This document shows, in pieces, positions 230 to 44,505 of a DNA stretch of 64,000 nt. Position 1 is the first letter of the stretch; each line of letters starts with the position of its first letter. The stretch lies in the IMG/VR virus record IMGVR_UViG_3300031578_000001; one strand, written 5' to 3'. Source of the stretch: a virus. The notes below the pieces were generated by a model that was not told where the DNA came from, searched no databases, and worked only from the letters and a program-made list of their open reading frames with translations. The translations under genes and the position numbers were made by a program.

Positions 230-230
230 C

Positions 231-1088: not shown

Positions 1089-1095
1089 GAATGAG

Positions 1096-2721: not shown

Positions 2722-2722
2722 C

Positions 2723-2941: not shown

Positions 2942-2942
2942 C

Positions 2943-4277: not shown

Positions 4278-4308
4278 TGGTGCCCTGGGTTTCATGAGGT
4301 CGAGAGAG

Positions 4309-4911: not shown

Positions 4912-4921
4912 GGAAGGTGAG

Positions 4922-5128
4922 ATGAGCGATCCGTTGGTGGACTTCAAGGTGGTGAAGAGGACGGAGAGTTCGGTGGTTGTAGAGATCAATGGTTCTTTAA
5001 TGGAGATTCCTGTATGCCGATCAACTTCGTCTTCACAAGAAACGACAAGTCCTTTATCAGCCGGGCCATCATATGGTTCGAGCAACGAAGGACTCAGAAA
5101 GAAAGACGCACTTCTCACGGCCTCCTGA
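4922..5128 (+). CDS. hypothetical protein (68 aa)
   Basis: RBS GGAAGGTGAG; the first ~31 aa look natural and the tail overlaps the next gene. Confidence 0.4.
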   Translation: MSDPLVDFKVVKRTESSVVVEINGSLMEIPVCRSTSSSQETTSPLSAGPSYGSSNEGLRKKDALLTAS

Positions 5129-6068: not shown

Positions 6069-6190
6069 AGCTCCCAGGATACGACGGCCCAAACCCTCCC
6101 GAGAAGATGAAGGACATCATCGCTTGGGAGAAGGCTCTTGCCGAACTGATGAAGAAGATCACATTCGTGAAGGATGGAGAGGGGTCATGA
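6065..6190 (+). CDS. hypothetical micro-protein (41 aa)
   Basis: ATGA overlaps at both ends; MKLPGYDGPNPPEKMKDIIAWEKALAELMKKITFVKDGEGS. Confidence 0.55.
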   Translation: MKLPGYDGPNPPEKMKDIIAWEKALAELMKKITFVKDGEGS

Positions 6191-6414
6191 GCATCTATAG
6201 CGCCTTCCTCGATGAGGTGATCAAGATCGCGGAGGGAAAGCCCAAGCCGGGCCAGCAGGGCCTCCTGGGCACGTCCACGGTACCCGATCCGAAGAAGGCA
6301 TCCGGCCAAACGGCGGCGATCGTAGGTCCTAAGGGAGGCCTGAACTTCACCAAGGATCTCGGGAAGATGCTGACCGCGAACCGTGCCGGGAAGCGCATCA
6401 TGTGGGGAGGGTAG
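6187..6414 (+). CDS. putative internal head protein with AFxDExxKIA leader (75 aa)
   Basis: ATGA overlap and RBS GGAGAGGGG; starts MSIYSAFLDEVIKIAE. Confidence 0.65.
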   Translation: MSIYSAFLDEVIKIAEGKPKPGQQGLLGTSTVPDPKKASGQTAAIVGPKGGLNFTKDLGKMLTANRAGKRIMWGG

Positions 6415-6442
6415 TTGCTTCTCAAACTCTATGGCTTATAAC
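6415..6442 (+). promoter_or_regulatory. candidate sigma70-like promoter upstream of the basic protein/RNAP operon
   Basis: TTGCTT-N16-TATAAC in the only AT-rich intergenic gap of this region. Confidence 0.4.
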
Positions 6443-6467
6443 TTCTTAGGGAAAGACCAGGTGGGTC

Positions 6468-7028
6468 ATGAAGAATAACAGGACGAAACTGAACGAATCC
6501 CAGACGAAGATCCTGTTGAGGAACCTCGGAGATCCGAGCCTGATCGCAGGCAAACTCGACATCTTCACCAGTGAGGAGACCCATTCGATCATCGAACTTG
6601 ATATCTCCAAGAAGACGCACATTCTGGTCTACGAGACGCTGAAAAATGACCACGAGAAATTTGAGGTGCTCCAGGAGAAGGATTTCGGCGGGACCGGATC
6701 GTACGTCAGAATCCGCTACGTAAGGAAGGGGATATGGACGCTCGACTTACCTCCCGATTTGGCGAATCCTTCCTCGATGAAATCCTCCCGATCTTCGAAA
6801 AAGAAGGAGGAGGAGAAGAAGGAAGGGGAAGCTCCGATCATAGGGTTCGGAGCTGCGGTTTCGAAGCCGAAGCCTGCCAAGAAGAAGATACCAGCCAAGA
6901 AAAAGAAGGCTCCAGTCAAGAAGAAAGCCCCGGCGAAACGGAAGGCTCCGGCCAAGAAAAAGTCGCCCGTAAGAAAGAAAAAGGCGGTTCCTCGGAAACG
7001 CTCCTCGCGATCCTCGGGAGCGCGATAG
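6468..7028 (+). CDS. protein with histone H1-like Lys/Ala/Pro tail (186 aa)
   Basis: C-terminal KPKPAKKKIPAKKKKAPVKKKAPAKRKAPAKKKSPVRKKK repeats. Confidence 0.75.
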   Translation: MKNNRTKLNESQTKILLRNLGDPSLIAGKLDIFTSEETHSIIELDISKKTHILVYETLKNDHEKFEVLQEKDFGGTGSYVRIRYVRKGIWTLDLPPDLANPSSMKSSRSSKKKEEEKKEGEAPIIGFGAAVSKPKPAKKKIPAKKKKAPVKKKAPAKRKAPAKKKSPVRKKKAVPRKRSSRSSGAR

Positions 7029-7282
7029 GGGCCGGTGCAGGAGGCGCCTCCCACATATCGAAATTCCTGAAGCAGCGCAAAGAGTGGCTCTCCGGCAGAA
7101 AAGATCCTCCCATCCATCCGAAGAGCAAGAAACTCTGGGACGTTCTCAGGAAACCCTCCTTCGTCACGCCTCATATGATCAGGAGGATCGGCGGTGGGGC
7201 TGCGCTCGGTTACATTACCGCAGCGAGTCTCCCAGGAATCGCCAGGCGCCTTCGTGTGCTTCTCAAGAAGGACCGTAAATGA
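6734..7282 (+). CDS. putative internal virion protein with glycine-zipper-like segments, overlapping the upstream gene by 295 nt
   Basis: Strong RBS GGAAGGGG; SFLDEILPIFEKEG leader-like motif; C-terminal LLAILGSAIGAGAGG and IGGGAALGY; ATGA-coupled to RNAP. Confidence 0.6.
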   Translation: MDARLTSRFGESFLDEILPIFEKEGGGEEGRGSSDHRVRSCGFEAEACQEEDTSQEKEGSSQEESPGETEGSGQEKVARKKEKGGSSETLLAILGSAIGAGAGGASHISKFLKQRKEWLSGRKDPPIHPKSKKLWDVLRKPSFVTPHMIRRIGGGAALGYITAASLPGIARRLRVLLKKDRK

Positions 7283-10200
7283 TTGACGCCGATCTCCAGT
7301 TTCCAGAGATGATGAAGCGCGTCGAGCGGACGATTGCCTCAGCATTCCCGATCGAATCGACCGGTCACATTATGGAGTTGAGCAATCTCGAGTGGAAGGG
7401 ATTCGGTAACGATGTGCGTGACAACATCACCCTTCACAAAGACTACAAGATGAAGGACAAGACCCTTTCGACCGATCTGGTGGGCGACATCACCATCCGC
7501 AAGAAAGGTGGAAAAGTGGTGGATAAGAAGACCGGGGCGGTCCTGCTCACGCTTCCCCATATCACCAACCGAGCCTCCTATATCGTCAACGGGAATGAGG
7601 TCCAGACCATCAATCAGCTTAGGCTCAGACCCGGGCCGTATACGCGGTTCACCTCCGATGACAATACCGAGACCTTCATCAATGCGGCCGGTGGCGGATA
7701 CAAGATCATCTTTGACAGGCAGACCGGTGTCATTCGGATCAAGTCGGGCACGACGTTCGTCTACATCTACCCCATCATGAAAGCCCTTGGCGTGTCTGAC
7801 CAGGCGATGCAGAGTGCTTGGGGATCGGTGATCTTCGAGGCGAACAAGAAGTATGACAAGCGTGAGCACGTCGAGAAACTCTTCAGGACGATGCGGAGAT
7901 TCAGCGCCGTTCCGGATAATCAGGTCGAGGTGGATCAGGCCGTGGAGGACTTCTTCAACTCGAAGAGGATCGATCCGAAGATCTCCAAGATCACATTGAA
8001 AAAGGAATTCACGAGTATCACCCCGGAATTGCTCCTGGACGCGAGCCGCAAGGCCGTGGATCTGGCCAAAGGGACGGCCGAGATGGACGACACGGAATCA
8101 CTGGCTTTCAAATCGATTCACTCGGTCGAGGACTTCGTCCCGGAGAAACTCGAGAGAGCCGTGCCGTCGATTCGTCGCCAGATCCAGATAAAGATGGATC
8201 GGATTCCTGTCGTCGAAACATTGATTTCGCCCAGGATGTTCTCGAATCCGGTGATCGACTGGTTCATGACCAGCGAGTTTACCAGGTATTCGGATCAGCA
8301 GAACCCCATCGACATGGCCGGGACCTCCCAGCTCACGACCACCATGGGCGAGGGAGGTATCCGGAGTATGCACGCCGTCACGGACCAGGTGCGAACGGTT
8401 CACCCATCCCAGATGGGTTTCCTGGATCCGCTGCACACTCCTGAAGGCGGAAAGATTGGCGTCACCGGGCACCTGACCATCGGAGCTCAGAAGAGAGGCG
8501 ACTCCCTCTTCTTGACCGTTCTCAACGCGAGGACGGGAGCACAGACTCAGAAGAGCGCGCAGGAGCTCGAGGACGCAACGGTGGCCTTCAATGATCAGTA
8601 CGTTCTCGACACTGGAAAGCCTAAACCCATCGCTTCCCTGATCGCGGCCAGGAAGGCGGGCAAGATCCAGATGGTCCCATCCGGAGAAGCGGACTTCATC
8701 TTTAAGGATCCCCGTTCTTTCTTCTCGGTCGCATCCAACGCGATTCCGTTCCTGCACAACAACAGTTCGAACCGCGGGCAGATGGCCGACCGTCATATCG
8801 AGCAGGCCGTTCCGCTTGTCAACCCCGACAGACCCCTGGTCCAGGCTCGGTTCAAGGGCGACATGGGGTACGACGATTACTTCGGCAAATACTCGAATGT
8901 AGCCGCTCCGATGGCTGGCACCGTGACCAAGGTCACGGACGATCTGATCAGGATCAAAGATCAGTCGGACCAAACCCACGACGTCAGATTGCACCACAAC
9001 TATCCTCTCAATGGGGGCTCGTTCCTCACGGACAGGCCTGTCGTGGTCACGGGGGATCGTGTCACTAAAGGCCAAGTCATCGCAGAGAACAATTTCACCA
9101 AGGATGGATCTCTGGCGCTCGGTAAGAATCTCCGCACGGCCCTGATCCCTTACAAGGGTCAGAATTTCGAGGACGGGGTGGTCATTTCCCAGGATGCCGC
9201 TACGAAGCTCACCTCGGAACATAAGCATGAGATGCGTCTCGATCTGACGAAGGACATTAAGATCGGACTCGACATCTGGCTGGCGCACTATCCGGACGAG
9301 GTGTCGAAGGTGAACCGGGGGAAGTACGACACGTCCGGAGTCATTCGTAAGGGCTCGAGAATCGATCGTGGCGATGTCCTGATCCCTGCCGTGGAGCAAG
9401 TCCAGATTCATGAAGAATATGATTACGCGAGGCTTCACAAGGCCCTGCGTCGACCCTGGCGCAATGTGGCGGTCACGTGGGAGTCGGATTATCCAGGAAC
9501 CGTGGTGGACGTGGTGAGGACGGCTAAGTTCATCAAGGTGTTCATCAGGACGGAGGAGGCTGCCCAGGTAGGCGACAAGTTATGCTATACCCCGGATCAT
9601 GAGGTTTTGACGCTCAGCGGATGGAAGCCTATTGCGGAGGTGACTCTCGACGATTGGGTAGCGGTTCTGGATGCAGATGGATTCCTTAGATACGAGCAGC
9701 CATACGAACTCCATTCTTACCTGATAGACGAGAACATCTACTCGCTGGAATCCCAACAGGTATCTCTGTCCGTGACTACGAATCACAATCTCTATGTCCG
9801 TAAGAGAGGGAATAAGGAGCACGAACTTATTCCCGCCGCTGAGTGCGTTGGAAAGCGCGTTCGACATAAAAAAGATGCGAAATGGGATGGTTCTTCCGTC
9901 GAAAAGATCGTGATCCCTGGATACACGGTGAAGTGCGGGCAGGGTGGCGCGGCGACGAAAATGATAGAGCCCTCCGAATTCGAGTCACGGGACTTTCTTC
10001 GTTTCTTGGGATTCTTCATTGCTGAGGGGAACCGGTGCGCCCCGAGGCGCGGCTCTTACAGAGTTTCGCTATCTCAGAATGACGGACCGAACAAGGTGTG
10101 GATCAAGCGGGTCCTCAAGAGACTCGGTCTCGGTTGTTCTCTGCCGAAAGGTAAGGTGGAGTTCTGTCACAGGGGAATCTGGGAATGGCTTGATTGTGTG

Positions 10201-13200
10201 GGTGATGGCGCTGGGAACAAACATATTCCGAAGTTGATCCTCGGTTTTAGCAGTGACCTTCTATTGTGCCTCTGGGAAGGACTGCATAGGGGAGATGGAT
10301 CAATAAGCAAGTCTGGCTCTGAGATCTACTATACATCGAGCCGTCAACTCGCGGATCAGGTTCAAGAATTGGCTTTGAAGGTCGGCTGGTCTGGAAATAT
10401 CTACACCAGATTCGAGGCTGGATGGGAGACGATCATTAAAGGGAAGAAGACTAAAGCCAACTTTGATGGTCTTGTGGTTCGGATCGTGAAATCGAAGAAC
10501 CAACCCATGATCAACCACGGGCACGCACGGACGCAGAACGGACAGGTGGAGGAATTGCGGCGATATTGTGGTCCGGTCCACTGTGTCACGGTTCCAGGCC
10601 ACATACTATATACGAGGAGAAATGGAAAGCCGGTCTGGTGCGGTAATTCCAATAGGGCAGGCGGCAAGGGCATCATCGTGAATATCCTTCCGGACAACGA
10701 GATGCTCAGGGATGAGTCGGGACAACCTCTCGACGTCCTGTTCAATCCCGGAGGCGTTGCCGGTCGAGTTAACCCGGGCCAGATCTTCGAGGGTGCAGCC
10801 GGAAAGGTGGCGCTGAAGACGGGCAAGCAGTACCTCGTCGACAACTTCTCGGAGCAGTCGTCCCTGGAGATGGTCAAGAAAAATCTCAAAGACGCCGGTA
10901 TGAGCGACCTCGAGAGCGTCACAGATCCCACGTCCAATAATACGGTCAAGGACGTGTTCGTCGGGAACGTGCATTTCGTGAAGTTGCAGCACCAGGTGAG
11001 TAAGAAGTTCTCGGCTCGGGGGATCGGAGGATACACGGCCGATGAGCAGCCCTCTAAGGTCAGCGGTGAGTCGGCACAGAACATCGGTTCAGGAGAGATC
11101 TATGCTCTACTGGCGTCAGGATCTCTTCATTTTTTGAAGGATGCTGCGACCCTGAAGTCGCAGTCGAATCCTGAATACTGGAGAGCCATGCAACTCGGGC
11201 TTCCCACTCCTCCTCCGAAACAACCTTTCATTCTCGACAAGTTCATCACGAGTCTCGAGGGCGCAGGGATCAACATGAAGCGGGAAGGAAACTCGCTGAA
11301 GGTCCTTCCCATGACGGACAAGGAAACTGAGTCGAGATCGAAGGGAGAGATCAAGAGTCCGGATGTCGTGAGAGCCTCGGACCTTCGTCCGGAACGAGGG
11401 GGTCTGTTCGACAAGGCCGTGACGGGAGGTATAGGCGGGACATCATGGTCCCACATCGATCTCGAGACGCCGGTCCCTAACCCTCTCATGGAGAAGTCGG
11501 TGATCTCTGTTCTGGGCCTCAAGCCGGCCGAGTACAGGGCAATCATGGCTGGGAATCTGTTCGTGACCCAGGACGGAAAATTCACAGCGGATCACCAGAA
11601 GGGACAGCCTGCCGGCGTCGGTCTGAAAATCCTTCTGGACAATGTGAACGTGAACCGAGAGCTCGAGAAGACCATCGTCGCCATTCGTGTGGCCAGGGGT
11701 GCGCGTCTCAACGAACTAAACCTCCGTAGACGCTATCTTCAGGCACTCAAGGCCTCTAAGATGACGCCGTCCGAGGCGTACATTCAGTCGAAAATCCCGG
11801 TCATTCCTCCGGCGTTCCGGCCGATCTATCCTCTTCCTGACGGGTCGCTGAACGTGGCCGATCCGAACCATAGCTACCGCGAGATCCTCATGATCAACAA
11901 CCAGCTGAAGGATCTCGCAGCCAAAGGAGTAGACAACAAGAACCTGGCACCAATCCGTGCGGATCTATTCGCAGCGGTCCAGGGTATGACCGGGATGATG
12001 GAGCCCCTTACCAGATCGAAGAACTTCAGGGGATTCGTGTCCACGATCAAGGGAAGGGTGAATAAGCGGGGCCTGTTCCAAGGTCGTGTGGTGAAGCGAC
12101 CACAGGATCTGTCCGGCCGCTCCACCATCATCCCGGACCCACAGCTCGGAATCGACGAGATGGGGATGCCCGCGGAGATGGGCCTTGTCATCTACAAACC
12201 GTTCATTGTGCGCCGACTCGTCGGTCTCGGGTACAAGCCGACCGAGGCCCTCGATCTCATCGACAAGAAAGACGAGAAGGCCCTCGAGGCACTCAGGCAG
12301 GAGGCGAAGGAGAGACCGGCCTATCTGAATCGAGCTCCCACGCTTCACAAATTCGGCATCATGCCTTTCCATCCGAAGATCATGGAAGGGAAAGCGATCA
12401 GGATCAATCCGTTGATCGTCCGGGGGTACAACGCCGACTTTGACGGGGACGATCAGATAGGCATAGTGTTATTGCACCTCGACCAGGAATCTCTTACCTT
12501 CGTAGAAGAGCAGTACGGTAAGAGATTCCTGGAGGACAGAGATGTGACGGCTCGTTACAAATGCTGCGTTCCGGCGTTTCAATCCGGGCGCTTGATCATG
12601 GTAGATCTCGCGGATTTCCCTGCCCTTCAGAAATTCAGAACTACTGAAGGGCGTAACGGCCCGATCGATTGGCATAAGATTCCGAAGGGCACCAGCGTAA
12701 TCGCCTATAATGAGTCCTCTGGTTCGCTGAAGTGGGCCAGAGCCACGGTCTGGTCCAAACACTATGACCGGCTTGTCGAGATCGTCGAACTTCAGAGTGG
12801 GAGACAGATCATCACCGATGACGATCCTCGCGCTGTGTACGGTATAGTCGCAGGATCGCTCGATTTTGTGAGGGCAACTCCAAAGGAGGCGGTTGAGACA
12901 GGGATTTTCGTACCCAGAATGGCGACAGCGGAGGTGCCGGATCTTGAACCAGAGTACATTCCGGCCCGAAATATCAAAGGAGCCAGATTACACCTGAAGG
13001 AGCGCATCGATCTCACAGGAGATTTTGGATATTTACTCGGATCCTTGGCTGGGGATGGCTGGCCGGTTTTTGTCCATGATGATGCCCGCGGCGTATCACT
13101 CGCTGGGATAGCAGACGAGGTAGTGGCCCGATGTGACCGGGCGGTAGACTCGCTGTTCGATGGCGCGGCGCCTGAATGTAGCCCGGTGGATGGTAAGGAA

Positions 13201-15885
13201 TCCTACGGCGAGAGTCGTCGAGTGACTTGGACTTCGGTCGAGCTTGGCTGGTTCATACACGGCCTGATCGGGAGGGGGGCGGAGAACAAGCATCTCCCTC
13301 CTTGGGTGTTCTCTTGTCGTAAGGAATTCAGATTTTCCGTGTTCGCCGGTCTCATGGATACGGACGGCGGAGTCGGAATTTCCAAGGCAAAGAAAAAGCC
13401 GCAACTCATGGCAAGCTATTCCTCTGTCAGTCTGCGGCTTGTAAGGGAGGTCAGGCTCCTCGCGGCTTCTTTGGGAATCGATAGCCGGATCACACCATCT
13501 AAGACCCCAGCCGGAGAGCCCTTTTGGGTGCTTAGTTTTTCAAATATCGGAATCAAGGAATGGGGAGGATCTGGTTTACAAAATCCGGACAAGATCAGAA
13601 AGATCTCCGAGACACCTGTCGATCCAAATTCCAATGTGGCTGCCCGATTTGATATCGTTCCGATCTCGTCCGGCCTTGCCCACGAGATCCGTAAGGTGAT
13701 CAAGGCTCCAAGGGATGCTTCCAAGGAAAGGAAATCGATCTATGTTGTTCTTAGTAAGGCGATCACCGTTGGATCTATGAGTCGCCAGATAGCTGTAAAG
13801 ATACTCAGCATGTTCAAGACGTTCGATCATCCAGATTACGAGAGGTGGAAGACGATTGTTAGATCCGGCGTCAAGTGGGATCGAGTCGTTTCGTTTGAAA
13901 GAACCGGTATCAAGGAAACTGGGTATGACTTGACTGTTCCCGGGTTTGAGACCTTTGTCTCGATCGATGGACTCGTTTTGTCGAACACCATGGGCGTTCA
14001 CGTTCCTGTGAGCGAAGAGGCCAGGATCGAGGCCCTGTCGAAGATGCCGTCAAAGCAGCTCTTTTCCGTCACGGATGACTCGGTGATTCACACGCCGACC
14101 AAGGAATACGTCCTTGGTCTCTACCTCATGACGAAACCTATTGGGCCTAAGGTGACGGCCAAGAATGTTTCCGAGATGCTCGATCGGTTCAACAAGAAAG
14201 AGATCCTGGTGAACCAGACTGTGAGCATCCTCGGGAAGATCTGGACGCCTGGACAGGCTCTCGTGAACGATGTGTTTCCTTCCGGGATGAGGCCCGGCAA
14301 CGTCATTGTCAATAAGAGCAAGATGTCGGCCCTGATCGAGGAAGCTGCGAGGACCTACCCTAAGGAGGCCGGGAGCGTCATCACGAAACTCAAGGACCTC
14401 GGTGCGTTCTACGTCACGGAGATTGGGTACTCGGTCGGTCTCAAGGATCTCGAATTCAATTACGTGAAGAGGGACAAGATTCTCGCGGATGCGGCCAAGA
14501 AGACGCCCAGAATAGGATTCGAGGCGGCCTACGGACAGGCCCTCGGTCGTCTCGACAATCAGGTGAAAGGAATGAAGGGGAATCGATTCGTTCTCGGGAA
14601 CATCGAGTCGGGAGCCTTCGGTAAGGCCGACATGGTGACGCAGATGATCGCCACACCGGTGGCGGTGCGTGATCATAAAAATGAACTCATTGAAGTTCCA
14701 ATCGCCAAGAGCTTCGTAGAGGGGCACAGCATCACGTCATACTGGTCCACGATTCCAGGCGCACGGAAGGGCCTCATCGAGAAGGGCCTCGGTACCGCCG
14801 AGACGGGAGCGCTGAGTAAGAGGCTCATCAACACGACGATCGAGCAGATCATTTCGATTCAGGACTGTGGAACGCTCGAAGGCATCATGATGCCCATCGA
14901 ATCGAGGGAAGCGGTCGACCGTGTGGTCTCCGACGGGCGAAACGCCGGCAAGATATTGACTCAGTCCCTTGCCAGGCAGATGAAGGCCGCAGGGAAGTCA
15001 CAGGTCAAGGTCAGATCTCCGTTAACTTGCCGCGCTCAGAGAGGAATCTGCGCGAAGTGTTTTGGTCTGCTCGAGAACGGTCAGTTCCCTCCCATCGGGT
15101 ATCACGTAGGTGTCCTCGCGGGTCAGGCCATAAGCGAGCCTATGACCCAACTGATGCTTAAATCTTTTCATACCGGCGGTGCCATGAGCCGGAAGATGGT
15201 CGGTTTCGATCGGATCCGCCAGATCATGGAGATGCCCGAGAATGTTCCCGGGAAAGCTACGATCGCCATGACGACCGGGACCGTGGATAGCATCACTCAG
15301 GCTGCCGGTGGCGGCTGGATCGTGAAGATAGATGACGTGGATCACTTCATCCCGAAAGAGCGTGGACTGGGGGTTAAGCGCGGAGATAGAGTTCTCGCCG
15401 GTAAGACGATATCGAAGACCGGAGTCGTGAGGCCTCAGGATCTACTCTCGGCTACGAACGACATCAACGTGGTTCGTGGCCGTCTGATCAAGGACCTCGA
15501 AAATGAGTTCAGCCAGGGAGGCGTCAGGATCAAGCGTAAACTCTTCGAGACGGTAGTGAAGCCCATGACCGATAGGTCCGAGGTGCTTGATGCCGGGGAT
15601 GGAGAGAAGCACGAGATCTTCAAGGGGGATATCATTCCGACGAATCTGATCGATGAGACCAACAAGAAGATCAAACAGACCGGCGGCCGGCTGATCCAGT
15701 TCAAGCCGTCACTTCTGTCGATTAGGGTCGCCCCTTATCACAGCGGGGATTTCGTTGGTAAATTGATGTTCGAGCGTCCACATGAGACAATCTCTGCGGC
15801 GCCTCGGATAGGGGCCAAGTCGGATATCGCTACGGGTCATCCGATTACGCAGTATGTTTTCGGCCAGCTCGGAAAGAAGAAATGA
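7279..15885 (+). CDS. rpoBC: DNA-directed RNA polymerase, fused beta-beta' subunits, with two inteins (2868 aa; ~2001 aa spliced)
   Basis: Beta motifs NAIPFLHNNSSNR, GQNFEDG, GDKL/SNRAGGKG, NPGGVAGRVNPGQ, KLQHQVSKKFSAR. Beta' motifs IPPAFRP, DLSGRS, LNRAPTLH, catalytic NADFDGD, bridge helix GARKGL..TAETG, SPLTC..C..C Zn site, trigger loop QAISEPMTQLMLKSFHTGG. Confidence 0.97.
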   Translation: MIDADLQFPEMMKRVERTIASAFPIESTGHIMELSNLEWKGFGNDVRDNITLHKDYKMKDKTLSTDLVGDITIRKKGGKVVDKKTGAVLLTLPHITNRASYIVNGNEVQTINQLRLRPGPYTRFTSDDNTETFINAAGGGYKIIFDRQTGVIRIKSGTTFVYIYPIMKALGVSDQAMQSAWGSVIFEANKKYDKREHVEKLFRTMRRFSAVPDNQVEVDQAVEDFFNSKRIDPKISKITLKKEFTSITPELLLDASRKAVDLAKGTAEMDDTESLAFKSIHSVEDFVPEKLERAVPSIRRQIQIKMDRIPVVETLISPRMFSNPVIDWFMTSEFTRYSDQQNPIDMAGTSQLTTTMGEGGIRSMHAVTDQVRTVHPSQMGFLDPLHTPEGGKIGVTGHLTIGAQKRGDSLFLTVLNARTGAQTQKSAQELEDATVAFNDQYVLDTGKPKPIASLIAARKAGKIQMVPSGEADFIFKDPRSFFSVASNAIPFLHNNSSNRGQMADRHIEQAVPLVNPDRPLVQARFKGDMGYDDYFGKYSNVAAPMAGTVTKVTDDLIRIKDQSDQTHDVRLHHNYPLNGGSFLTDRPVVVTGDRVTKGQVIAENNFTKDGSLALGKNLRTALIPYKGQNFEDGVVISQDAATKLTSEHKHEMRLDLTKDIKIGLDIWLAHYPDEVSKVNRGKYDTSGVIRKGSRIDRGDVLIPAVEQVQIHEEYDYARLHKALRRPWRNVAVTWESDYPGTVVDVVRTAKFIKVFIRTEEAAQVGDKLCYTPDHEVLTLSGWKPIAEVTLDDWVAVLDADGFLRYEQPYELHSYLIDENIYSLESQQVSLSVTTNHNLYVRKRGNKEHELIPAAECVGKRVRHKKDAKWDGSSVEKIVIPGYTVKCGQGGAATKMIEPSEFESRDFLRFLGFFIAEGNRCAPRRGSYRVSLSQNDGPNKVWIKRVLKRLGLGCSLPKGKVEFCHRGIWEWLDCVGDGAGNKHIPKLILGFSSDLLLCLWEGLHRGDGSISKSGSEIYYTSSRQLADQVQELALKVGWSGNIYTRFEAGWETIIKGKKTKANFDGLVVRIVKSKNQPMINHGHARTQNGQVEELRRYCGPVHCVTVPGHILYTRRNGKPVWCGNSNRAGGKGIIVNILPDNEMLRDESGQPLDVLFNPGGVAGRVNPGQIFEGAAGKVALKTGKQYLVDNFSEQSSLEMVKKNLKDAGMSDLESVTDPTSNNTVKDVFVGNVHFVKLQHQVSKKFSARGIGGYTADEQPSKVSGESAQNIGSGEIYALLASGSLHFLKDAATLKSQSNPEYWRAMQLGLPTPPPKQPFILDKFITSLEGAGINMKREGNSLKVLPMTDKETESRSKGEIKSPDVVRASDLRPERGGLFDKAVTGGIGGTSWSHIDLETPVPNPLMEKSVISVLGLKPAEYRAIMAGNLFVTQDGKFTADHQKGQPAGVGLKILLDNVNVNRELEKTIVAIRVARGARLNELNLRRRYLQALKASKMTPSEAYIQSKIPVIPPAFRPIYPLPDGSLNVADPNHSYREILMINNQLKDLAAKGVDNKNLAPIRADLFAAVQGMTGMMEPLTRSKNFRGFVSTIKGRVNKRGLFQGRVVKRPQDLSGRSTIIPDPQLGIDEMGMPAEMGLVIYKPFIVRRLVGLGYKPTEALDLIDKKDEKALEALRQEAKERPAYLNRAPTLHKFGIMPFHPKIMEGKAIRINPLIVRGYNADFDGDDQIGIVLLHLDQESLTFVEEQYGKRFLEDRDVTARYKCCVPAFQSGRLIMVDLADFPALQKFRTTEGRNGPIDWHKIPKGTSVIAYNESSGSLKWARATVWSKHYDRLVEIVELQSGRQIITDDDPRAVYGIVAGSLDFVRATPKEAVETGIFVPRMATAEVPDLEPEYIPARNIKGARLHLKERIDLTGDFGYLLGSLAGDGWPVFVHDDARGVSLAGIADEVVARCDRAVDSLFDGAAPECSPVDGKESYGESRRVTWTSVELGWFIHGLIGRGAENKHLPPWVFSCRKEFRFSVFAGLMDTDGGVGISKAKKKPQLMASYSSVSLRLVREVRLLAASLGIDSRITPSKTPAGEPFWVLSFSNIGIKEWGGSGLQNPDKIRKISETPVDPNSNVAARFDIVPISSGLAHEIRKVIKAPRDASKERKSIYVVLSKAITVGSMSRQIAVKILSMFKTFDHPDYERWKTIVRSGVKWDRVVSFERTGIKETGYDLTVPGFETFVSIDGLVLSNTMGVHVPVSEEARIEALSKMPSKQLFSVTDDSVIHTPTKEYVLGLYLMTKPIGPKVTAKNVSEMLDRFNKKEILVNQTVSILGKIWTPGQALVNDVFPSGMRPGNVIVNKSKMSALIEEAARTYPKEAGSVITKLKDLGAFYVTEIGYSVGLKDLEFNYVKRDKILADAAKKTPRIGFEAAYGQALGRLDNQVKGMKGNRFVLGNIESGAFGKADMVTQMIATPVAVRDHKNELIEVPIAKSFVEGHSITSYWSTIPGARKGLIEKGLGTAETGALSKRLINTTIEQIISIQDCGTLEGIMMPIESREAVDRVVSDGRNAGKILTQSLARQMKAAGKSQVKVRSPLTCRAQRGICAKCFGLLENGQFPPIGYHVGVLAGQAISEPMTQLMLKSFHTGGAMSRKMVGFDRIRQIMEMPENVPGKATIAMTTGTVDSITQAAGGGWIVKIDDVDHFIPKERGLGVKRGDRVLAGKTISKTGVVRPQDLLSATNDINVVRGRLIKDLENEFSQGGVRIKRKLFETVVKPMTDRSEVLDAGDGEKHEIFKGDIIPTNLIDETNKKIKQTGGRLIQFKPSLLSIRVAPYHSGDFVGKLMFERPHETISAAPRIGAKSDIATGHPITQYVFGQLGKKK
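9583..10647 (+). mobile_element. intein with LAGLIDADG homing endonuclease in RNAP beta (355 aa)
   Basis: Splits GDKL|SNR; starts CYTPDH, Block B TTNH, FLGFFIAEG and WEGLHRGDG motifs, ends WCGN with +1 Ser. Confidence 0.93.
12451..13986 (+). mobile_element. non-canonical intein with LAGLIDADG endonuclease directly after the RNAP beta' NADFDGD motif (512 aa)
   Basis: Removal restores NADFDGD|TMGVHVP; YLLGSLAGDG and FAGLMDTDG motifs; C-terminal GYDLTV..TFV..DGLVLSN|T; starts DQIG rather than C/S. Confidence 0.85.
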
Positions 15886-17195
15886 TCGCAGTCGGAGAAG
15901 TCACGCAGTCCGTCCCGACGAAGCGGGCGTACTTCGTTAATTTCTACGACGGGGTCGAGAAACTGTGCTCCATCGGAAACATCGGGATCGACATACCTCT
16001 GCGGGAAGGCGACAAGGTTCTATGCGCTTTCTCTGATACACGGGTGAACAGCGGGTGGGTGATCCTCTGCCGGATCGACACGCCGAGACTCCCTAAGCCG
16101 GGCGAGGAGAATCTCGAGAAGAGCATCGAGCAACAACTCGCCGAGGAGCAGGAGAACCTGATCAAGACGGCAGTTGGCGGCTACGAGCCCGACGGCATTC
16201 CGGACTGGGGAGGCGGTTGGGACGAACCCCCGACCTACGGCGAGATCCTGGCCAAGAGTCGGACATCCCAAGGATTCTCGAAGGTGATGTCCGATGGGTC
16301 CATGATCAACTTCGTGGATCAGATCCTCCACATCGTCCTGAGCAAGCACAATAAGGCGGCGATCTTCAGGATGAAGCAACTTATTCTCGACGTGATTCCT
16401 GGATTTTTCCTGAACGTCACTCCTAAGGACCAGGTCGACGTGCAGCCAGAGGCTCCTACCGAGGCGACATCTCCGAACAAGAAGAAAGTCATAATCGAAT
16501 CCGGGATCGCTCCTGATCCAGAAGACAACCTCATCGATTTCTTCATGGAAGCCGGAATCCTGAAGCAGATGGACGACCCTGGCTACGGGAAGAGCGTCGA
16601 TACACAGGGCAAGAAGATCAAGCGAGGAGGTCGGGTAAGGATCAGGGATTTCGCCATCTTCGAGTCCGACATCGAGAACAAGGAGTTGCGACTCACGTTT
16701 CAGATCCCAGGAACGGCTCCGACAGATCTGTACCAGATCAGGGCTAACACGAGCGAGTTCGTGATCTCGTGGGGAAAACAATTCTTCGCGATCAGGGACT
16801 CCGGAATCATGATGAAGGGGGATCTTCTTGGCTTCGCCGGACCCTGGGCCATGTGGAGTAAGATGACTACCGAACCCCTTATGCACAATACGGAGCTCTC
16901 CGAAGACCAGATGCAGCCGATCTGCGAATGGAAAGAGGATGCCCCGGCTGGCGGGATTAAGTTCCTCAAAAGTGTATACTTTGGACAGAACGAGGAACCT
17001 GCGGTTCTCCAGTCGTTTATCGACAATGTGTATACGAAGGAGATGGATCTCATTCGGGACCACTTCCACTCGTATTCGCCGCCTGCGGTCGTCACTGGCA
17101 CGTCGCCGGCACTCCAGGCGGGATTACTGGTGCTCGATGCTCTTCTGGATCCGCCGCTGGTGTCAGATATTCTGAGCGGACAGATCACGATCTGA
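15882..17195 (+). CDS. putative baseplate spike/gp5-like protein with N-terminal OB-fold (437 aa)
   Basis: N-terminal G-V...P..EGDKVLCAF....WVILC pattern resembles gp5/gpV OB domains and is followed by beta-strand repeats. Confidence 0.45.
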   Translation: MIAVGEVTQSVPTKRAYFVNFYDGVEKLCSIGNIGIDIPLREGDKVLCAFSDTRVNSGWVILCRIDTPRLPKPGEENLEKSIEQQLAEEQENLIKTAVGGYEPDGIPDWGGGWDEPPTYGEILAKSRTSQGFSKVMSDGSMINFVDQILHIVLSKHNKAAIFRMKQLILDVIPGFFLNVTPKDQVDVQPEAPTEATSPNKKKVIIESGIAPDPEDNLIDFFMEAGILKQMDDPGYGKSVDTQGKKIKRGGRVRIRDFAIFESDIENKELRLTFQIPGTAPTDLYQIRANTSEFVISWGKQFFAIRDSGIMMKGDLLGFAGPWAMWSKMTTEPLMHNTELSEDQMQPICEWKEDAPAGGIKFLKSVYFGQNEEPAVLQSFIDNVYTKEMDLIRDHFHSYSPPAVVTGTSPALQAGLLVLDALLDPPLVSDILSGQITI

Positions 17196-17207
17196 CGGAG
17201 GAAGAAG

Positions 17208-19007
17208 ATGGCCATGGAAGTTGCAGGACAGCCCCTTTTCCTGACGAAGGAGGACGTTCTCCCCGTAATGGAGAAGGTGGCCATGTATAAACTGAGTCCC
17301 GACCCGTCGAAGTGGGACCAGGAAATCATGACCTTCCTTCACGAGCAGAATCCCTATCTCCAGGACTACGACATCCGGATCCACATGAACAAGACCAATC
17401 CGGATTCGGGTTCCGGCGTGGGCCAGATTGTCATCGAGGAGAAGATCGCGGTTCCGATCATCATCGAATCGAACAAGCTTTACCCGCTCGATCTTTTCTG
17501 GTCCGAGGACAAACTTCAGCCCATGACCAAGCCATCGCTGATGAGTGCCCTTCAGCGAACCAATGTCGGAAAGGCGGTGGAGCCGGGTCACGGAGAGATC
17601 TCGGATGTGAGCATCTACCAGGCCACCCGTCCACCGTTCTCGGGGAAATATTCCTTCGCCGAAGGCCTGACCTTTACCAACGACGAGCTCCAAGAAGTCC
17701 TTTCGGTCATGGGATCCGAGGCTCTCGACTTCGCCATTCGTACCAACCCGGTGTTCAAGGACTCGCTGGCCGCATACAGCCGCAACGCTCTGACGGACGA
17801 GGACCTTAAGAAGACGGCGTCCGCGTCCATCCTCGACGCGAATCTGGTCGACCTTTTCTCCTACAGCGAGATCGAGAGTCCCGGGATCTACAGCGTCGTG
17901 GCCAACGGCTTCATGAAGAGGGCTGCGTTCGTCTTCGACATGGTCATCGACTGGGATGATCAGCTGGTCGAAGGCAAGAAGATGGCCCTCGATATCGAGG
18001 ATCGGGGCATTTCCATCCAGGACTCCATGGGCGGCATACCCCTCGAGCTCGGTGGGGACTTCGAGAAGATCGCCATGGCCGAGGACCGTCCGTGTTCCGG
18101 TGACATCGGGATCTTCTGGCTCACGAAGAATGGCCGCGCTGTCGCCACGATGCCGGTCAAGGTCCTGTTCAGCGGATCAAGCGACAGCGACATCCCGTTC
18201 GTCAAGGTCGCTGAACTCGGTCTGGTGGAGAGGAACAGAACGGTCTACCGCTCGCCGGAGTACAGCAGTTTCACGAAGGTGGGCGAGAACATCTTCATGT
18301 CCAGAGAATGGGAATGGGCGAAGGTCGGGGAAGTACGGAAGATCGCAGCCGTCGAGATCGCCAACAAGCTCGACTGGCCCGACGACGTGGTCGAGATTCA
18401 GAACAGGCGGGGATTCTTCATGCTCGAAGGTCTCGATGTCGACGGCATCCCGAAGGAGGGCGCCGGACGTCTGGAGTTCGAGGAGCATCTTTCCAAGGTC
18501 ATGAACCCGGAGACCGTGTCCGGTCTCATGAAACAGGCCGAGGATCGGGGGAGCGTCTTTTTCACGGTACAGGAGCAGGAGGCCGTCAAGACGGCCAGTG
18601 AGAAGCGCGTCATCGATCTCAAGGCCGGGTTGACGAAGGCCCTGATCAAGATGGCTCACCAGAGGAACATAGGACCAAGCCGTTTGGTACAACATGCGGC
18701 CCATGTGAGGCCGTGCGAACGGTTCGAGTTTCTCAAGTTCGCAGTTCATGTCAACGAAGACATGGCGAAGAACACGGTGGACTCCATCCTCGGTCTGAAC
18801 TTCGTCAACGACGAGAATCTCTACAAGTTCGTAGAGAAGACCGAGATCCTCGAGAACGCCCTCGACACCCTTGCTAAGCTTCTCCTGGCTGCGCGACTCG
18901 GTCTCGACATCGAACAGGCTCCTCTCCGTACGGCCATGTTTTCGATGGACGAGGTGGTTCGCCAGTTGAAGAGTCTGGGAAGCCAAGTCTATGGTGAAGA
19001 GGAATAG
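17208..19007 (+). CDS. putative head-associated protein with multiple K-x-A motifs (599 aa)
   Basis: RBS GGAGG; MEKVA, KKTAS, FEKIA, RKIAA, VKTAS, IKMA, LKFA; no catalytic motif recognised. Confidence 0.7.
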   Translation: MAMEVAGQPLFLTKEDVLPVMEKVAMYKLSPDPSKWDQEIMTFLHEQNPYLQDYDIRIHMNKTNPDSGSGVGQIVIEEKIAVPIIIESNKLYPLDLFWSEDKLQPMTKPSLMSALQRTNVGKAVEPGHGEISDVSIYQATRPPFSGKYSFAEGLTFTNDELQEVLSVMGSEALDFAIRTNPVFKDSLAAYSRNALTDEDLKKTASASILDANLVDLFSYSEIESPGIYSVVANGFMKRAAFVFDMVIDWDDQLVEGKKMALDIEDRGISIQDSMGGIPLELGGDFEKIAMAEDRPCSGDIGIFWLTKNGRAVATMPVKVLFSGSSDSDIPFVKVAELGLVERNRTVYRSPEYSSFTKVGENIFMSREWEWAKVGEVRKIAAVEIANKLDWPDDVVEIQNRRGFFMLEGLDVDGIPKEGAGRLEFEEHLSKVMNPETVSGLMKQAEDRGSVFFTVQEQEAVKTASEKRVIDLKAGLTKALIKMAHQRNIGPSRLVQHAAHVRPCERFEFLKFAVHVNEDMAKNTVDSILGLNFVNDENLYKFVEKTEILENALDTLAKLLLAARLGLDIEQAPLRTAMFSMDEVVRQLKSLGSQVYGEEE

Positions 19008-20082
19008 CAAACTCAAGACGTTCACCAGAGCCGGACTTTTAGCGAAGTACGGGATCTCTTTTGACACTCTGGGCACGTTGCTCGGCTCTGATCTCCTCGA
19101 TGGGGAGTTCGAGCATAAAGCGGGCAAGAGCCTGTTTGCGGTGTCTCCTCAGGATGATTTCGTTTTTCGCTGCTCCAGGCTTCAGGTTGACAGCTTCCAC
19201 ACTATCGGACTGACTTTCCCTTTCCACCGTTTTCTCGTCTACCGGTTCATCAACACGCCCGTGGACGAAGTCTACGAGGAGATCTTCCAGCTCGGCCTGC
19301 TCCCGAAGATAGACGCCTTCACGAAGGACGAGATGAAGCGTCTCCATAAGAAGATCATCGGAGCCGCTCCGAGAGAACTGGCGAAGGCGTTCAAGGATCT
19401 GAGGGAACCGAAGAAGGACGAGAAGAAGAAATACGATCTCTTTCTGAAGACCTTGAACATCCAGTTGTACTATGACAAGCCGTCGCTCGTTGACGATCTA
19501 ATGTTCTACATACCCATGCGGGCGGAGCTCGAGGTCATCCTTACGACGATCTGTACCGCGGAGGAGGCGACTGAGGCGCTCTCCAAAATGATCGACGTGT
19601 CGATCCCGCTCTCGGCTATCACCACCTACAGGATCCTTCTTTACGCTTCCCATAACGTCAATCCGAGGCACATAGATATGTATTACAACCTGATCCTTCC
19701 GAGCGAGAGACTCGTAAAACGCGAGGCGATGGGTCTCACCCTCACTGAGTTCTGTGTCAAGAAGGGGGCCGATCGTGTGGTGGACACGAAGACTGTCCTT
19801 GAGGTCATCATGAGGCACGCCCAGAAGGAGGTCATGCGTCTCCATCAGATCAAGACCCCTGAAGGGCACCAGGCTGCCAGGGCCGCTCTCGATCGGCTCA
19901 TCAAGGCTCACGACAGACTCGAGGCCATGGGCGCCACGAGCGAGGAGAGCCGCGAGAATCTGGCGAAGACGTTCAAGAAGTTCAGGATCAAGAAGGTCAC
20001 GAACGCGGAGGCTGGACCCATTTTCACCATACACGACATCCAGAAGGACGGCGTCGGTGAGGTGGAGTCCGGTGGCAAATGA
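18991..20082 (+). CDS. hypothetical protein, candidate terminase small subunit (363 aa)
   Basis: Immediately upstream of and ATGA-coupled to terL; helical and basic. The call rests on position only. Confidence 0.4.
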   Translation: MVKRNSKLKTFTRAGLLAKYGISFDTLGTLLGSDLLDGEFEHKAGKSLFAVSPQDDFVFRCSRLQVDSFHTIGLTFPFHRFLVYRFINTPVDEVYEEIFQLGLLPKIDAFTKDEMKRLHKKIIGAAPRELAKAFKDLREPKKDEKKKYDLFLKTLNIQLYYDKPSLVDDLMFYIPMRAELEVILTTICTAEEATEALSKMIDVSIPLSAITTYRILLYASHNVNPRHIDMYYNLILPSERLVKREAMGLTLTEFCVKKGADRVVDTKTVLEVIMRHAQKEVMRLHQIKTPEGHQAARAALDRLIKAHDRLEAMGATSEESRENLAKTFKKFRIKKVTNAEAGPIFTIHDIQKDGVGEVESGGK

Positions 20083-21908
20083 GTTTTCAAGTCAAATATC
20101 ATGATCCGTCGACGACGGGTGTCAGGTTCAGGCCTAACAAATACTCCCTGCTTCCGGAGGCGGCTTCGCTCATCGGATGCGGTCTTGTGGATGTGGACGA
20201 GGATGCGATTGACGAAGTCACCCAAGAGACGATGGAGAGCGACGATTCCCAGATCGAAGGATGGATCTCCAATTTCGCTGAAGCTCTCGTCACCGTAAAT
20301 CGAGAGCCTCTCTCCCTCAAGGATCGCGACTACCTTCGTATGATCTACGATGTCAGGAGCGAGTACCCGAACGGATCGAGGAACACGGTGATCGTTTCCG
20401 GCCGACAGGTCGAGAAATCGACCACCATTGCCGCGAAGGTTATGACCTTGTGCATCCTCCACCCGTCGTTCTCGGCTCTGGTAGTCGAGCCCCGGGTAGA
20501 TCAGATCAAGGTCATCAGCCAGCAGCGCTTCGACCCGATGGCCCATGATTCCAAGCCCCTTCGCCAGGGATGGCTCTCAAGCAAAAACGTCTGGCAGGTA
20601 GGAATGAAGGGGTTCAACAACGGGTCCATCGTGAACTTCAAGTCCTGTTATTACTCTGCCGACCCCTCCCGTGGGATCACGGCCGGATTCCTCGCAATCG
20701 ACGAGTTGCAGGACATCATCTCGGACAACATTCCGATCCTCGAGGAGTGCCAGTCCCACCTTCAGATGGAGCCGGACCGCGTCTTCAATCTCTATACCGG
20801 GACCCCGAAGACGACATCAAACACGCTCAACCAGCACTGGAGGGATACCTGCCAATTCGAGTGGCTCGTCAAGTGCCAGTCGTGCACCAACTATAACTAC
20901 CTCGACGAGAAGGTCATCGGAAAGCACTTCTACATCTGCACTCGATGCGGGAGGCAGATTTACCCGACTAAGCACGGGCAGTGGATTGCCATGAAGCCGA
21001 GCAAGCTCGACTACAGATGGGGGTTCAGGATCTCCCAGCTGATGGTCCCGTTCATGGAGCACGCTAAGATCCTGGAGAAAATGGAGAATCCGAACATTCC
21101 TCATCGGGTATTCATGAATGAGGTGGTGGGACTCTCCTACGACGAGGGACAGCTGCTCCTGACGGAAGCCGATATATTGAAGCACTGTGAGCCCAGGCCC
21201 CAGGATACGCCCCAGAACATTGCACAGAGGACCGATATATTCATGTGCGCCGGGGTCGATCATGGGACCGGCGACTATGCCGTTTCCGGCATGGACGACG
21301 GCGGAACCCGTGGGATGAAGGCTCGGGCCAAGCCGTCGTTCACGTGACTGGCTTTCGGCGGTTTTGGAGCCGACGATCGGTTCCGAATTCTCAAGATGGA
21401 AAAGTTCCATGGTGAGATGGCCAACCTGGCACGTCAGCCGGAGTATATCGACGAATACGTCAGGAAGTACGGCGCTAAGTGGGTGATGTCAGACTACGGG
21501 TTCGGCGCCCACACGAACGCCAGACTCGTTGCGGATCACGGGTGGACACGGTCTGATGTCGAGGGAACGAGGGATCCCCTCCTGATGGAATGCGAATACT
21601 CTGGGATACAGAAGGTTCCGATCAGATGGCACAGCGGAGCCTGGAGATATATTATCAATCGTAACTTTGCCATCGAGCATACGGTTGACGGGATCAAAAG
21701 GGGGACGATCTGGTTCTTTCGTGAAGCCGAAATGAAGGAATTCATTGACGACTTCACCTCCATGTATACCGAGTACGACTTCAGGAGCAAGCACGTAAGA
21801 TACGACCACGTTCTCCCGGATGACTGTTTCCAGGCGGTTCTATACTGCTATCTGGCCGCCTTGCAGCATCGTGGGATGCTCGTCCCCACAATGGTTCCGA
21901 ACATTTGA
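20079..21908 (+). CDS. terL: terminase large subunit (lambda GpA-like), interrupted by one in-frame TGA at 21345-21347 (609 aa if read through)
   Basis: Walker A SGRQVEKST, Walker B LAIDELQD, motif III TGTPKT, CxxC..CxxC Zn site. Nuclease motif AGVDHG lies before the stop; SDYGFG and DDCFQA lie after it in the same frame. Confidence 0.88.
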
Positions 21909-43670: not shown

Positions 43671-43707
43671 GAGAGCCCGGCGATTAGTCGTCGGGCTCTT
43701 CTTTTTT
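43671..43707 (+). terminator. Rho-independent terminator at the convergence of the two gene blocks
   Basis: GAGAGCCCGGCGA-TTAG-TCGTCGGGCTCTT followed by CTTTTTT. Confidence 0.8.
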
Positions 43708-44505
43708 GAGTGCGGCTGGAGGGATGTGACCTTCTCTGATGAGAACGTAGAGTTTCCTGAGGGCCGCGCTTTCGATCTGTCGTATCCGTTCCCTGGACTT
43801 TCCGTAGTGTTCCGAGATCTCCTTCAAGGTCTCTTCGTCGCACGAGATCCCGTAGCGCCGGCGTATGATATCCTCCTCGAGAGGCTTGAGTCTGTGGAGG
43901 ACACCTGCGATCTTCTCCTTGATTTCCGCATTCGCTGATATGTCTATCGGATCTCCATCGGTTGATGGAATGTCATCGCATATGTTGTGAGCGATCATGG
44001 TTCTCTTCTCGTTGTATTTCTTGAAGATCCTGAGAAGGGATACTGACCACCCAAGGAATTCGTAGACCTCATGTTCGGTCGGAGTTCGTCCCGTGTCCTC
44101 CTCGATAGCTTTCTTGGCAAGTTTGAAATCGTTCTTGAGGTTCGAGACAGAGGCCACTGTTTCCCTACTGAAGAAGTTAAGACCTTTCCTGATTTTAGAG
44201 TTGATCCACCAGACGGCGTACGTGGAGAACTTGAACCCGAGGCTGATGTTGAATTTGTCGATGGCCGTGAACAGGCCTATCGTTCCGTCACTGATGAGGG
44301 ACATGACCCTCGGGTCCTTGGGGCCACAGAACTTCATCACGCACGAGATAACGAGTCTCATATTCCGTTCGATGAACTCGATCCGGGCTTCTTTATTTCC
44401 CTTTTTTATCAACCTCAGAAGTCTCTTCTCCTCCTGAGCCGATAAGGTTCCTTTGTTCTCGAACTTCTTATAGAACTCGTTGAATTCCTGCTGGTCATTA
44501 GCCAT
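43684..44505 (-). CDS. RNA polymerase sigma factor, sigma70 family (273 aa)
   Basis: Region 1.2 LSAQEE..ERNMRLV, region 2 GTIGLFTAIDKF..GFKFSTYAVWWI, region 4.2 TLKEISEHYGKSRERIRQIESAALRKL. Confidence 0.93.
   Translation of the reverse strand: MANDQQEFNEFYKKFENKGTLSAQEEKRLLRLIKKGNKEARIEFIERNMRLVISCVMKFCGPKDPRVMSLISDGTIGLFTAIDKFNISLGFKFSTYAVWWINSKIRKGLNFFSRETVASVSNLKNDFKLAKKAIEEDTGRTPTEHEVYEFLGWSVSLLRIFKKYNEKRTMIAHNICDDIPSTDGDPIDISANAEIKEKIAGVLHRLKPLEEDIIRRRYGISCDEETLKEISEHYGKSRERIRQIESAALRKLYVLIREGHIPPAALKKEEPDD

Follow-up and report, generated by a model that had tools for sequence, protein, structure and literature searches.

A single-chain, bacterial-type RNA polymerase core accompanied by sigma70-family factors in a family of tailed phages

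Introduction

Can the core of a bacterial-type RNA polymerase consist of a single polypeptide, be served by ordinary sigma70-family factors, and dispense with alpha and omega? This question is raised by a large open reading frame (ORF) in a virus record of IMG/VR (IMGVR_UViG_3300031578_000001), of which a stretch of 64,000 nucleotides, called the window throughout, was analysed. A previous reading of the window, made from its letters alone (the sequence-only reading), had taken this ORF for a minimised beta-beta' polymerase that forms, together with one phage sigma factor, a self-sufficient two-protein transcription machine. To our knowledge, no well-studied RNA polymerase of the cellular type manages without an alpha-like assembly platform, and the alpha-free exceptions that we know of, the enzymes of phiKZ, AR9 and crAss phages, are too divergent to use sigma. 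We report that the ORF is the precursor of a single-polypeptide bacterial-type RNA polymerase core, and we examine how far its family, its accompanying sigma genes and its cultured relatives bear on the question of alpha independence.

The window belongs to a contig of 120,910 bp (G000, 63% complete) with a tailed-phage setting, as indicated by the large terminase gene (TerL) at positions 20079-21347 (Pfam, PHROG). The same phage is also on record as a contig of ~181 kb in ENA. An identical 2868-amino acid (aa) polymerase protein is on record for 6 contigs, and those displayed include assemblies of both JGI and ENA; the ORF is thus not an assembly artefact.

Organisation of the polymerase ORF

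As the sequence-only reading had proposed, all two-barrel motifs lie in one chain, which measures 2001 aa once two inteins are subtracted (2868-355-512). The boundaries in an alignment of the window polymerase with six intein-free homologues (alignment A1, seven rows), the Pfam matches and the alignments to structures in the PDB agree on this point (Table 1). Pfam recognised Rpb2_6 (143 bits), Rpb2_3 (43.6 bits), Rpb1_2 (81.2 bits) and Rpb1_5 (83 bits) above cut-off, Rpb1_1 and Rpb1_3 both below cut-off, and in addition LAGLIDADG_3 and Intein_splicing; E-values of the beta and beta' domain matches ranged from 1e-23 to 1e-41. When the PDB was searched with the beta part and with both beta' parts, the best-ranked matches were bacterial, and residues 57-706 of beta matched residues 72-744 of the Synechococcus beta subunit with an E-value of 1.7e-54. 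The spliced modules comprise ~981 aa (beta) and ~1016 aa (beta') and are joined by a linker of ~9 residues. The N-terminus of beta' (TDKETESRSKGEIKSPD...) follows directly on this linker and aligns to residues 16-53 of bacterial beta'. The linker is conserved, and the arrangement is a true head-to-tail beta-beta' fusion. Further downstream, GARKGL...TGALSKRL and SEPMTQLMLKSFHTGG align to elements of the bacterial bridge helix and trigger loop.

Compared with bacterial chains, the biggest single loss is that of the first zinc (Zn) ribbon of beta': GLFDKAVTG-GIGGTS-WSHIDL stands where bacteria have a four-Cys stretch. The remaining saving is made up of many small trims. Absence of the N-terminal Cys4 Zn finger and retention of the C-terminal Zn site had both been pointed out before, and PDB alignment, direct reading and alignment A1 bear them out. 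Kept along with this second Zn site are the bridge helix, a trigger loop without SI3, the clamp helices and a flap-tip-like helix. The C-terminal tail of beta', which contacts omega in bacteria, is ~20-70 residues shorter than in two aligned bacterial chains. The description of the enzyme as far shorter than the ~2700 aa of cellular beta plus beta' holds only in part: relative to the E. coli pair (1342+1407 aa) it is ~27% smaller, but relative to the smallest bacterial chains of solved structure found in the PDB searches (beta, 1100 aa; beta', 1161 aa) it is smaller by only ~260 aa (~12%).

The rifampicin pocket reads TRYSDQQNPIDMAGTSQLTTTMGEGG in the phage chain versus SQFMDQ.NPL.E.THKRR.SALGPGG in bacteria. 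The residues at the equivalents of E. coli Q513, H526, R529 and S531 are R, T, L and T, respectively. With these established rifampicin-resistance positions altered, the phage enzyme is predicted from its pocket residues to be insensitive to rifampicin.

Table 1. Features of the polymerase gene, its neighbours and the two sigma genes (window coordinates unless stated otherwise).
Feature	Position	Strand	Basis
Precursor ORF of single-chain beta-beta' RNA polymerase, 2868 aa (2001 aa without both inteins)	7279..15885	+	ORF call, Pfam, alignment A1
Beta module, N-extein, aa 1-768, ending in double-psi-barrel motif GDKL	7279..9582	+	Collinear with bacterial beta
Intein 1, aa 769-1123, 355 aa, LAGLIDADG endonuclease	9583..10647	+	Missing from all six intein-free homologues in A1; Pfam LAGLIDADG_3
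Beta module, C-extein, aa 1124 to ~1336, SNRAGGKG to ...LEGAGINMKRE	10648..11286	+	Pfam Rpb2_6, A1
Beta-to-beta' junction, ~aa 1337-1345, GNSLKVLPM	11287..11313	+	Columns conserved in A1
Beta' module, N-extein, aa 1346-1724, clamp helices and catalytic NADFDGD	11314..12450	+	E ~1e-42 to bacterial beta' chains
Deleted beta' Zn ribbon site, GGLFDKAVTGGIGGTSWSHIDL, no Cys	11401..11463	+	PDB alignment, direct reading; same deletion in 7/7 rows of A1
Intein 2, aa 1725-2236, 512 aa, non-canonical, two LAGLIDADG motifs	12451..13986	+	Exact insertion between DFDGD and T[MV]G.HVPVS (A1)
Beta' module, C-extein, aa 2237-2868, bridge helix, second Zn site, trigger loop, no SI3-type insertion	13987..15885	+	E 5e-54, Streptomyces and Bacillus beta'
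Kept second Zn site of beta', C2530, C2584, C2591, C2594	14866..15060	+	Invariant in A1; aligns to bacterial CGT...C..C..C
Small gene directly upstream of polymerase, ~50-aa conserved core, Lys/Pro/Ala-rich histone-H1-like tail	6468..7028	+	BLAST
ORF sharing sequence with the small gene in a different frame; its stop codon and the start codon of the polymerase gene overlap (ATGA)	6734..7282	+	53% identical homologue at same position in locus L012
599-aa gene, 363-aa gene and large terminase, directly downstream	17208..21347	+	TerL by Pfam and PHROG
Sigma A, compact primary-like sigma70-family factor, 273 aa, regions 1.2-4.2	43684..44505	-	Pfam, SigA alignment
Sigma B, second sigma70-family gene, 229 aa	G000:C1:91844-92533 (= window coordinate 92796-93485, outside window)		Sigma70_r3 above cut-off; PHROG 351, E 2e-16

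Two inteins in the catalytic motifs

The catalytic double-psi-barrel motifs of beta and beta' are each split by an intein of the homing-endonuclease type, and removal of both inteins restores the motifs GDKL/SNRAGGKG in beta and NADFDGD/TMGVHVPVS in beta' (slashes mark the splice junctions). Intein 1, situated in the beta barrel (GDKL/C...GN/SNRAGGKG), reads directly as a class 1 intein, with C769, TTNH in block B, the terminal N1123 and S1124 at position +1; its penultimate residue is Gly, not His. Intein 2, situated in the beta' barrel (NADFDGD/DQIG...LSN/TMGVHVPVS), starts with Asp1, has TDDDP instead of TxxH in block B, and ends with a penultimate Ser and a terminal Asn, followed by Thr at position +1. 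It lies outside the known classes 1 to 3, having no class 1 nucleophile, no Ala1 with a +1 Cys, and neither the WCT triad nor a Cys in block F.

Elements of this second type (~504-520 aa) occupy the identical site in 9 homologues with polymerase identities of only 34-55%. These elements begin with D, Q, A or G, end in LSN/T and contain no conserved Cys. They share the conserved blocks ARF, DL.DFP, W[ST]xH, TDDD[PE]RAV[YF]G and GYDLTVPG, block F reading GYDLTV, with Asp. Some family members bear canonical inteins at the same site. Because intein 2 sits in the active site, enzyme activity requires its precise departure, and its conservation in nine diverged homologues argues that it does leave.

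A family of fused polymerases

The beta-beta' fusion is not peculiar to the window phage but is fixed throughout a large family of tailed phages with genomes of ~180-200 kb. A length-matched search, in which 8000 candidates were scored, returned 190 proteins of 1577-5019 aa at E <= 1e-10, encoded on contigs of up to 196 kb. Family members free of inteins measure ~2000-2090 aa, those bearing inteins up to 3966 aa. In IMG/VR, 331 matches were confirmed, and all of the 80 loci fetched from among these were spanned by one open frame (80/80). Split close relatives were considered and rejected, as the short matches of high identity proved to be fragments at contig ends (P0127 checked). Real split forms were encountered only at 28-30% identity, as C-terminal beta' pieces of ~625 aa, of the kind found in the cultured phages Arash and D69.

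Bacterial beta' subunits from many phyla are about equally far from the window beta' (25-31% identity). We computed a tree from the C-terminal region of beta', unrooted and comprising no archaeal and no published mReC sequences (mReC phages are described below). In this tree, the 21 bacterial beta' included, which represent at least three phyla, lay on one side of a branch of length 1.51 with an SH-aLRT support of 100, and the split forms of the Arash/D69 type were placed among the fused sequences, on long branches (support 94 and 96). Since the tree is unrooted and without archaea, it speaks to separation from bacteria, not to origin. A search of 185,579 bacterial species genomes with two peptide patterns yielded no confirmed relative and hence no pointer to a prophage or a host.

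Alpha and omega in the window phage and its relatives

No alpha N-terminal domain and no omega is recognisable in the family. Six-frame searches of the phage's own 120,910-bp contig detected neither of the two alpha domains (N-terminal and C-terminal) and no omega. As this contig is only 63% complete, the search was extended to 17 large contigs of relatives, 7 of them CheckV-complete (4 of those 7 with terminal repeats), and to two cultured phages, Arash and D69. Models of the alpha N-terminal domain (PF01000, PF01193) matched 0/17 large relatives, including the seven complete ones, and none of Arash, D69 and the phage's own contig; the same models matched 14/14 control genomes. For omega (PF01192), no match above the Pfam cut-off was obtained in 20 records. 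The earlier remark that neither alpha nor omega is seen in the window therefore extends to the whole contig, to seven complete relatives and to two cultured ones; an alpha encoded elsewhere in the genome, named at the time as grounds for abandoning the proposal, was looked for in the phage's own contig, the 17 relatives, Arash and D69, and no alpha N-terminal domain was found.

An alpha-C-terminal-like domain (PF03118) was seen at G005:C1:20739-21558 (E 8.6e-17) and at G010:C1:124515-124667 (E 9.7e-12). G005 and G010 are the only relatives with such a domain, and both are without an alpha N-terminal domain.

Sigma factors accompanying the polymerase

In nearly all cases, the polymerase gene comes together with one or two genes of the sigma70 family. 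The gene in the window that had been read as a sigma70-like factor with regions 1.2-4.2 (sigma A) is confirmed by Pfam for Sigma70_r2 (39.8 bits; cut-off 24) and r4 (53.1 bits; cut-off 24.1), with r3 slightly under its cut-off (22.3 bits; cut-off 25.3), and by alignment with primary SigA (residues 102-355) and RpoD over the same regions (E ~1e-32). It retains FSTYAVWWI in region 2.3/2.4 and RERIRQIE in region 4.2. A second gene, sigma B, lies on the same contig outside the window. The counterparts in Arash are Gp196 for sigma A (E 5e-11) and Gp10 for sigma B (30% identity, E 2e-18), and both paralogues also occur in D69 and several uncultured relatives. Searches with the sigma A profile found sigma genes in 13/17 large contigs and in 6/7 complete genomes, G005 being the one complete genome without a detected sigma. 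Of the self-sufficient two-protein machine proposed from the window, the absence of alpha and omega stands, but the parts list was incomplete, as it lacked sigma B.

A complex prediction of the beta' clamp region (aa 1346-1724) with sigma A reached a median score of 0.30, the mark being 0.32, and speaks neither for nor against their association. With respect to promoters, k-mer enrichment over 59 upstream regions gave weak signals, one recurrent decamer resembling the reverse complement of a ribosome-binding site. A scan of positions 1-20000 for the sigma70 consensus returned 13 sites versus 7.9 +/- 3.1 expected, all with only 9/12 matches. No promoter motif can be claimed. As to its surroundings, the sigma B gene comes after two genes of ~1000 aa, with start/stop overlap; the neighbours of sigma B gave no family matches, and the 985-aa neighbour has no match in Arash or D69.

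Comparison with known systems

The nearest described relative is the group of mReC tailed phages, which has not been described as having a single-chain layout. Their beta and beta' branch apart from the cellular enzymes (Weinheimer & Aylward 2020, PMC7481178). Like the window phage, they are tailed phages known from metagenomes whose beta and beta' are readily matched by bacterial profiles; they stand apart from the cellular clades, as the window polymerase does from the 21 bacterial sequences in the unrooted beta' tree, and the two groups come partly from the same kinds of samples. Module sizes are similar as well, with ~900-1000 aa for beta and ~1000 aa for beta' in one mReC type among the supplementary rows considered. 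In these rows of the supplement, beta and beta' are always two separate gene products (PMC7481178), whereas the window family has a single chain in all 80 fetched loci. Fusion, sigma factors, inteins and the absence of alpha are not mentioned in the mReC paper (PMC7481178). In the part of supplementary file 5 considered, several mReC contigs carry two polymerase sets, for example a beta' of ~1365 aa with a beta of ~1005 aa and a beta' of ~1015 aa with a beta of ~900 aa (PMC7481178). The sequence-only reading had assigned the enzyme to a known lineage of metagenomic tailed phages; mReC does provide the nearest described relative, but the layout differs, to judge from the rows in which beta and beta' are listed separately.

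With the bacterial core and its sigma70, the window system shares collinear beta and beta' modules, both barrels, the bridge helix, the trigger loop, the clamp helices and a sigma70-family factor. A head-to-tail beta-beta' fusion also exists in some bacteria (rpoBC of Helicobacter and Wolbachia). The window enzyme differs from the bacterial core by having no alpha or omega genes and no first Zn ribbon, by being ~260-750 aa smaller, and by its altered rifampicin pocket. The crAss-like gp66-type polymerase, which is delivered with the virion, likewise has both barrels in one polypeptide; it is kin to RNAi-type polymerases and uses no sigma70 factor, whereas the window enzyme matches the Pfam beta and beta' domains. 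No similarity of the crAss enzyme to the COG0085 and COG0086 profiles is detectable (PMC7481178). The two-barrel enzymes of phiKZ and AR9 do without alpha and omega, and one set is packaged in the virion for early transcription (PMC7598289). They have beta and beta' split into 4-5 polypeptides and no sigma70 homologue, in contrast to the one chain and two sigma70-family genes of the window phage. Reviews of phage multisubunit polymerases treat the split, sigma-less enzymes of phiKZ and AR9, and mReC in passing only (PMC7598289 among them); in the literature searched, we found no paper describing the single-chain family.

Cultured relatives are available in phage Arash of Salmonella and phages D69, D181 and D148 of Vibrio, whose enzymes belong to the same lineage (24-33% identity in BLASTP; among the fused sequences in the tree). 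They resemble the window phage in having beta fused to beta', two sigma paralogues, no alpha N-terminal domain, and a polymerase adjoining head genes. Unlike in the window phage, beta' is cut ~80 residues past the catalytic motif in Arash and D69, resulting in chains of 1525 + 606 aa and 1527 + 609 aa, respectively, and the catalytic motif of the cultured phages reads AADYDGD instead of NADFDGD. They are without inteins; D181 and D148 have a homing-endonuclease insertion at the DNA level instead, in which ~950 bp interrupt the fused polymerase gene (locus L005, D181, 2740-3688). In D69, D181 and D148, ~640 bp with two tiny ORFs lie between the two polymerase genes (locus L001, 8279-8916). Scanning the Arash and D69 loci with Rfam revealed nothing relevant, and no intron in D69.

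For Arash, mass spectrometry of gradient-purified particles has been published: Gp206, which comprises beta and the N-terminal part of beta', had the top spectral count, and Gp216 and the sigma factor Gp10 were also found (PMC10585845). In the stretch of the virion table around Gp196, the entries go from Gp194 to Gp197, and Gp196 is not among them (PMC10585845). The particle list counts 116 proteins after the sucrose gradient, replication enzymes included, and its authors allow for carry-over (PMC10585845).

Proposed mechanism and alternative explanations

We consider it reasonably probable that the window phage encodes an alpha- and omega-independent single-chain core, possibly packaged in the virion and served by two phage sigma factors. 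Protein splicing would yield the active 2001-aa enzyme, and the covalent link between beta and beta' would replace the assembly platform otherwise provided by the alpha dimer. The enzyme would be guided to phage promoters by the phage sigmas and not by the host sigma, the phage factors docking on the clamp helices and flap tip that it has kept. If Arash is a guide, virions may contain the core together with sigma B, the Gp10-type factor, and the two would initiate early transcription, with sigma A possibly coming into play later in infection. The place of the polymerase gene at the head of a packaging/head module is in keeping with such a link to the virion. More doubtful, taken as a whole, is a complete natural minimal system of bacterial type in which an alpha- and omega-free chain would be encapsidated together with a dedicated sigma, carry out rifampicin-insensitive early transcription, be reprogrammed by a second sigma, and depend on intein splicing outside the three classes.

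Several points weigh against the single-chain, alpha-independent enzyme. Its function is deduced from sequence for every family member. With no known N-terminal nucleophile in intein 2, maturation of the active site would not be guaranteed. G005 and G010 encode proteins with an alpha-C-terminal-like domain. The alpha search covered 120,910 bp of a genome of ~181 kb, with ~60 kb outside it, and Pfam models would overlook an assembly factor that is non-homologous or highly diverged. Alpha is still used by the natural beta-beta' fusion of Helicobacter and by engineered ones, and fusion alone is therefore no proof of alpha independence. Virion association is only suggestive, given the 116 particle proteins with replication enzymes among them. 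Finally, sigma A has host-like -10/-35 recognition residues and could, judged by these, equally serve the host core polymerase.

This last point leads to an alternative that we regard as rather unlikely, namely that the phage sigmas redirect the host core, as those of T4, SPO1 and many large phages lacking a polymerase do, and that the single-chain enzyme starts with some other unrecognised factor or on special templates. Such a role would suit sigma A, whose best alignments are to primary SigA/RpoD and which has the canonical recognition residues of regions 2.4 and 4.2, and would have precedent in the sigma homologues that polymerase-less phages commonly encode for the host core (PMC7598289). 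It is countered by the presence of sigma genes alongside the fused polymerase in six of the seven complete genomes, by the Gp10-type sigma found in Arash particles together with the polymerase, and by the clamp helices and flap-tip-like helix that the fused enzyme has kept. Distinctly unlikely, in our view, is a fused chain that still needs host alpha, and perhaps omega, for folding or assembly, so that the phage would bring the catalytic chain and the sigmas only. The bacterial rpoBC fusions (Helicobacter, engineered E. coli) do work with alpha, and with collinearity to bacterial beta and beta' over most of the length, surfaces for contact with alpha could persist. However, if the virion delivers the enzyme for the very first transcription, reliance on host alpha would fit poorly, and the shortened C-terminal tail of beta', the site of omega contact in bacteria, also argues against it. 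Moreover, phiKZ and AR9 illustrate that two-barrel polymerases can do without both subunits (PMC7598289).

The gene might also be crippled: if intein 2 were unable to splice, the active site would stay interrupted and the ORF would be a decaying or non-catalytic remnant. Asp1, the lack of TxxH and of a penultimate His, and the lack of any conserved Cys in intein 2 would fit such a state. We nevertheless judge it very improbable, in view of the element of ~504-520 aa at the same site in the nine homologues, whose polymerases have diverged to 34-55% identity with their frames intact, of the strongly conserved blocks, which are the signature of selection for a working element, and of the recurrence of the identical polymerase ORF on six contigs.

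If the alpha-independent single-chain core is real, it would be the smallest natural bacterial holoenzyme, of bacterial type and with ordinary sigma70 partners, in one chain without alpha, omega and the first Zn ribbon. It would then offer a direct test of the real need for alpha, omega and the first beta' Zn ribbon, and its single-gene core would be handy in structural studies and as a basis of orthogonal expression systems. In addition, it would represent a third way, besides the N4 type and the phiKZ type, for phages to carry early transcription machinery. The family is large, with its 331 IMG/VR matches, and is not covered in the reviews searched. With cultured relatives at hand, Arash on Salmonella and D69 on Vibrio, it could serve as a minimal model of bacterial transcription.

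Neighbouring genes

The 437-aa gene at positions 15882-17195 was considered as a conserved subunit and rejected, as it had no Pfam or PHROG match, gave an uninformative Atlas search and was present in only 4 loci. The 599-aa gene, the 363-aa gene and TerL lie directly downstream of the polymerase gene, which thus heads a packaging/head module. In the flanks of the fetched polymerase loci, the 599-aa gene was matched in 51 and TerL in 40. No similarity was found between the 599-aa gene and the Arash portal.

Upstream, homologues of the small gene at 6468-7028 stand directly before the polymerase gene in at least four family loci (BLAST). The core of its product, with the motif ...IELLD..D..RWQ.L.ND.ERYEV..., has a predicted beta-alpha-beta-beta fold (pLDDT ~90). 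Its best PDB match (E 0.13) was not significant, and the product is neither omega-like nor alpha-like. The ORF at 6734-7282 overlaps this gene in another frame, and both of the overlapping frames have homologues.

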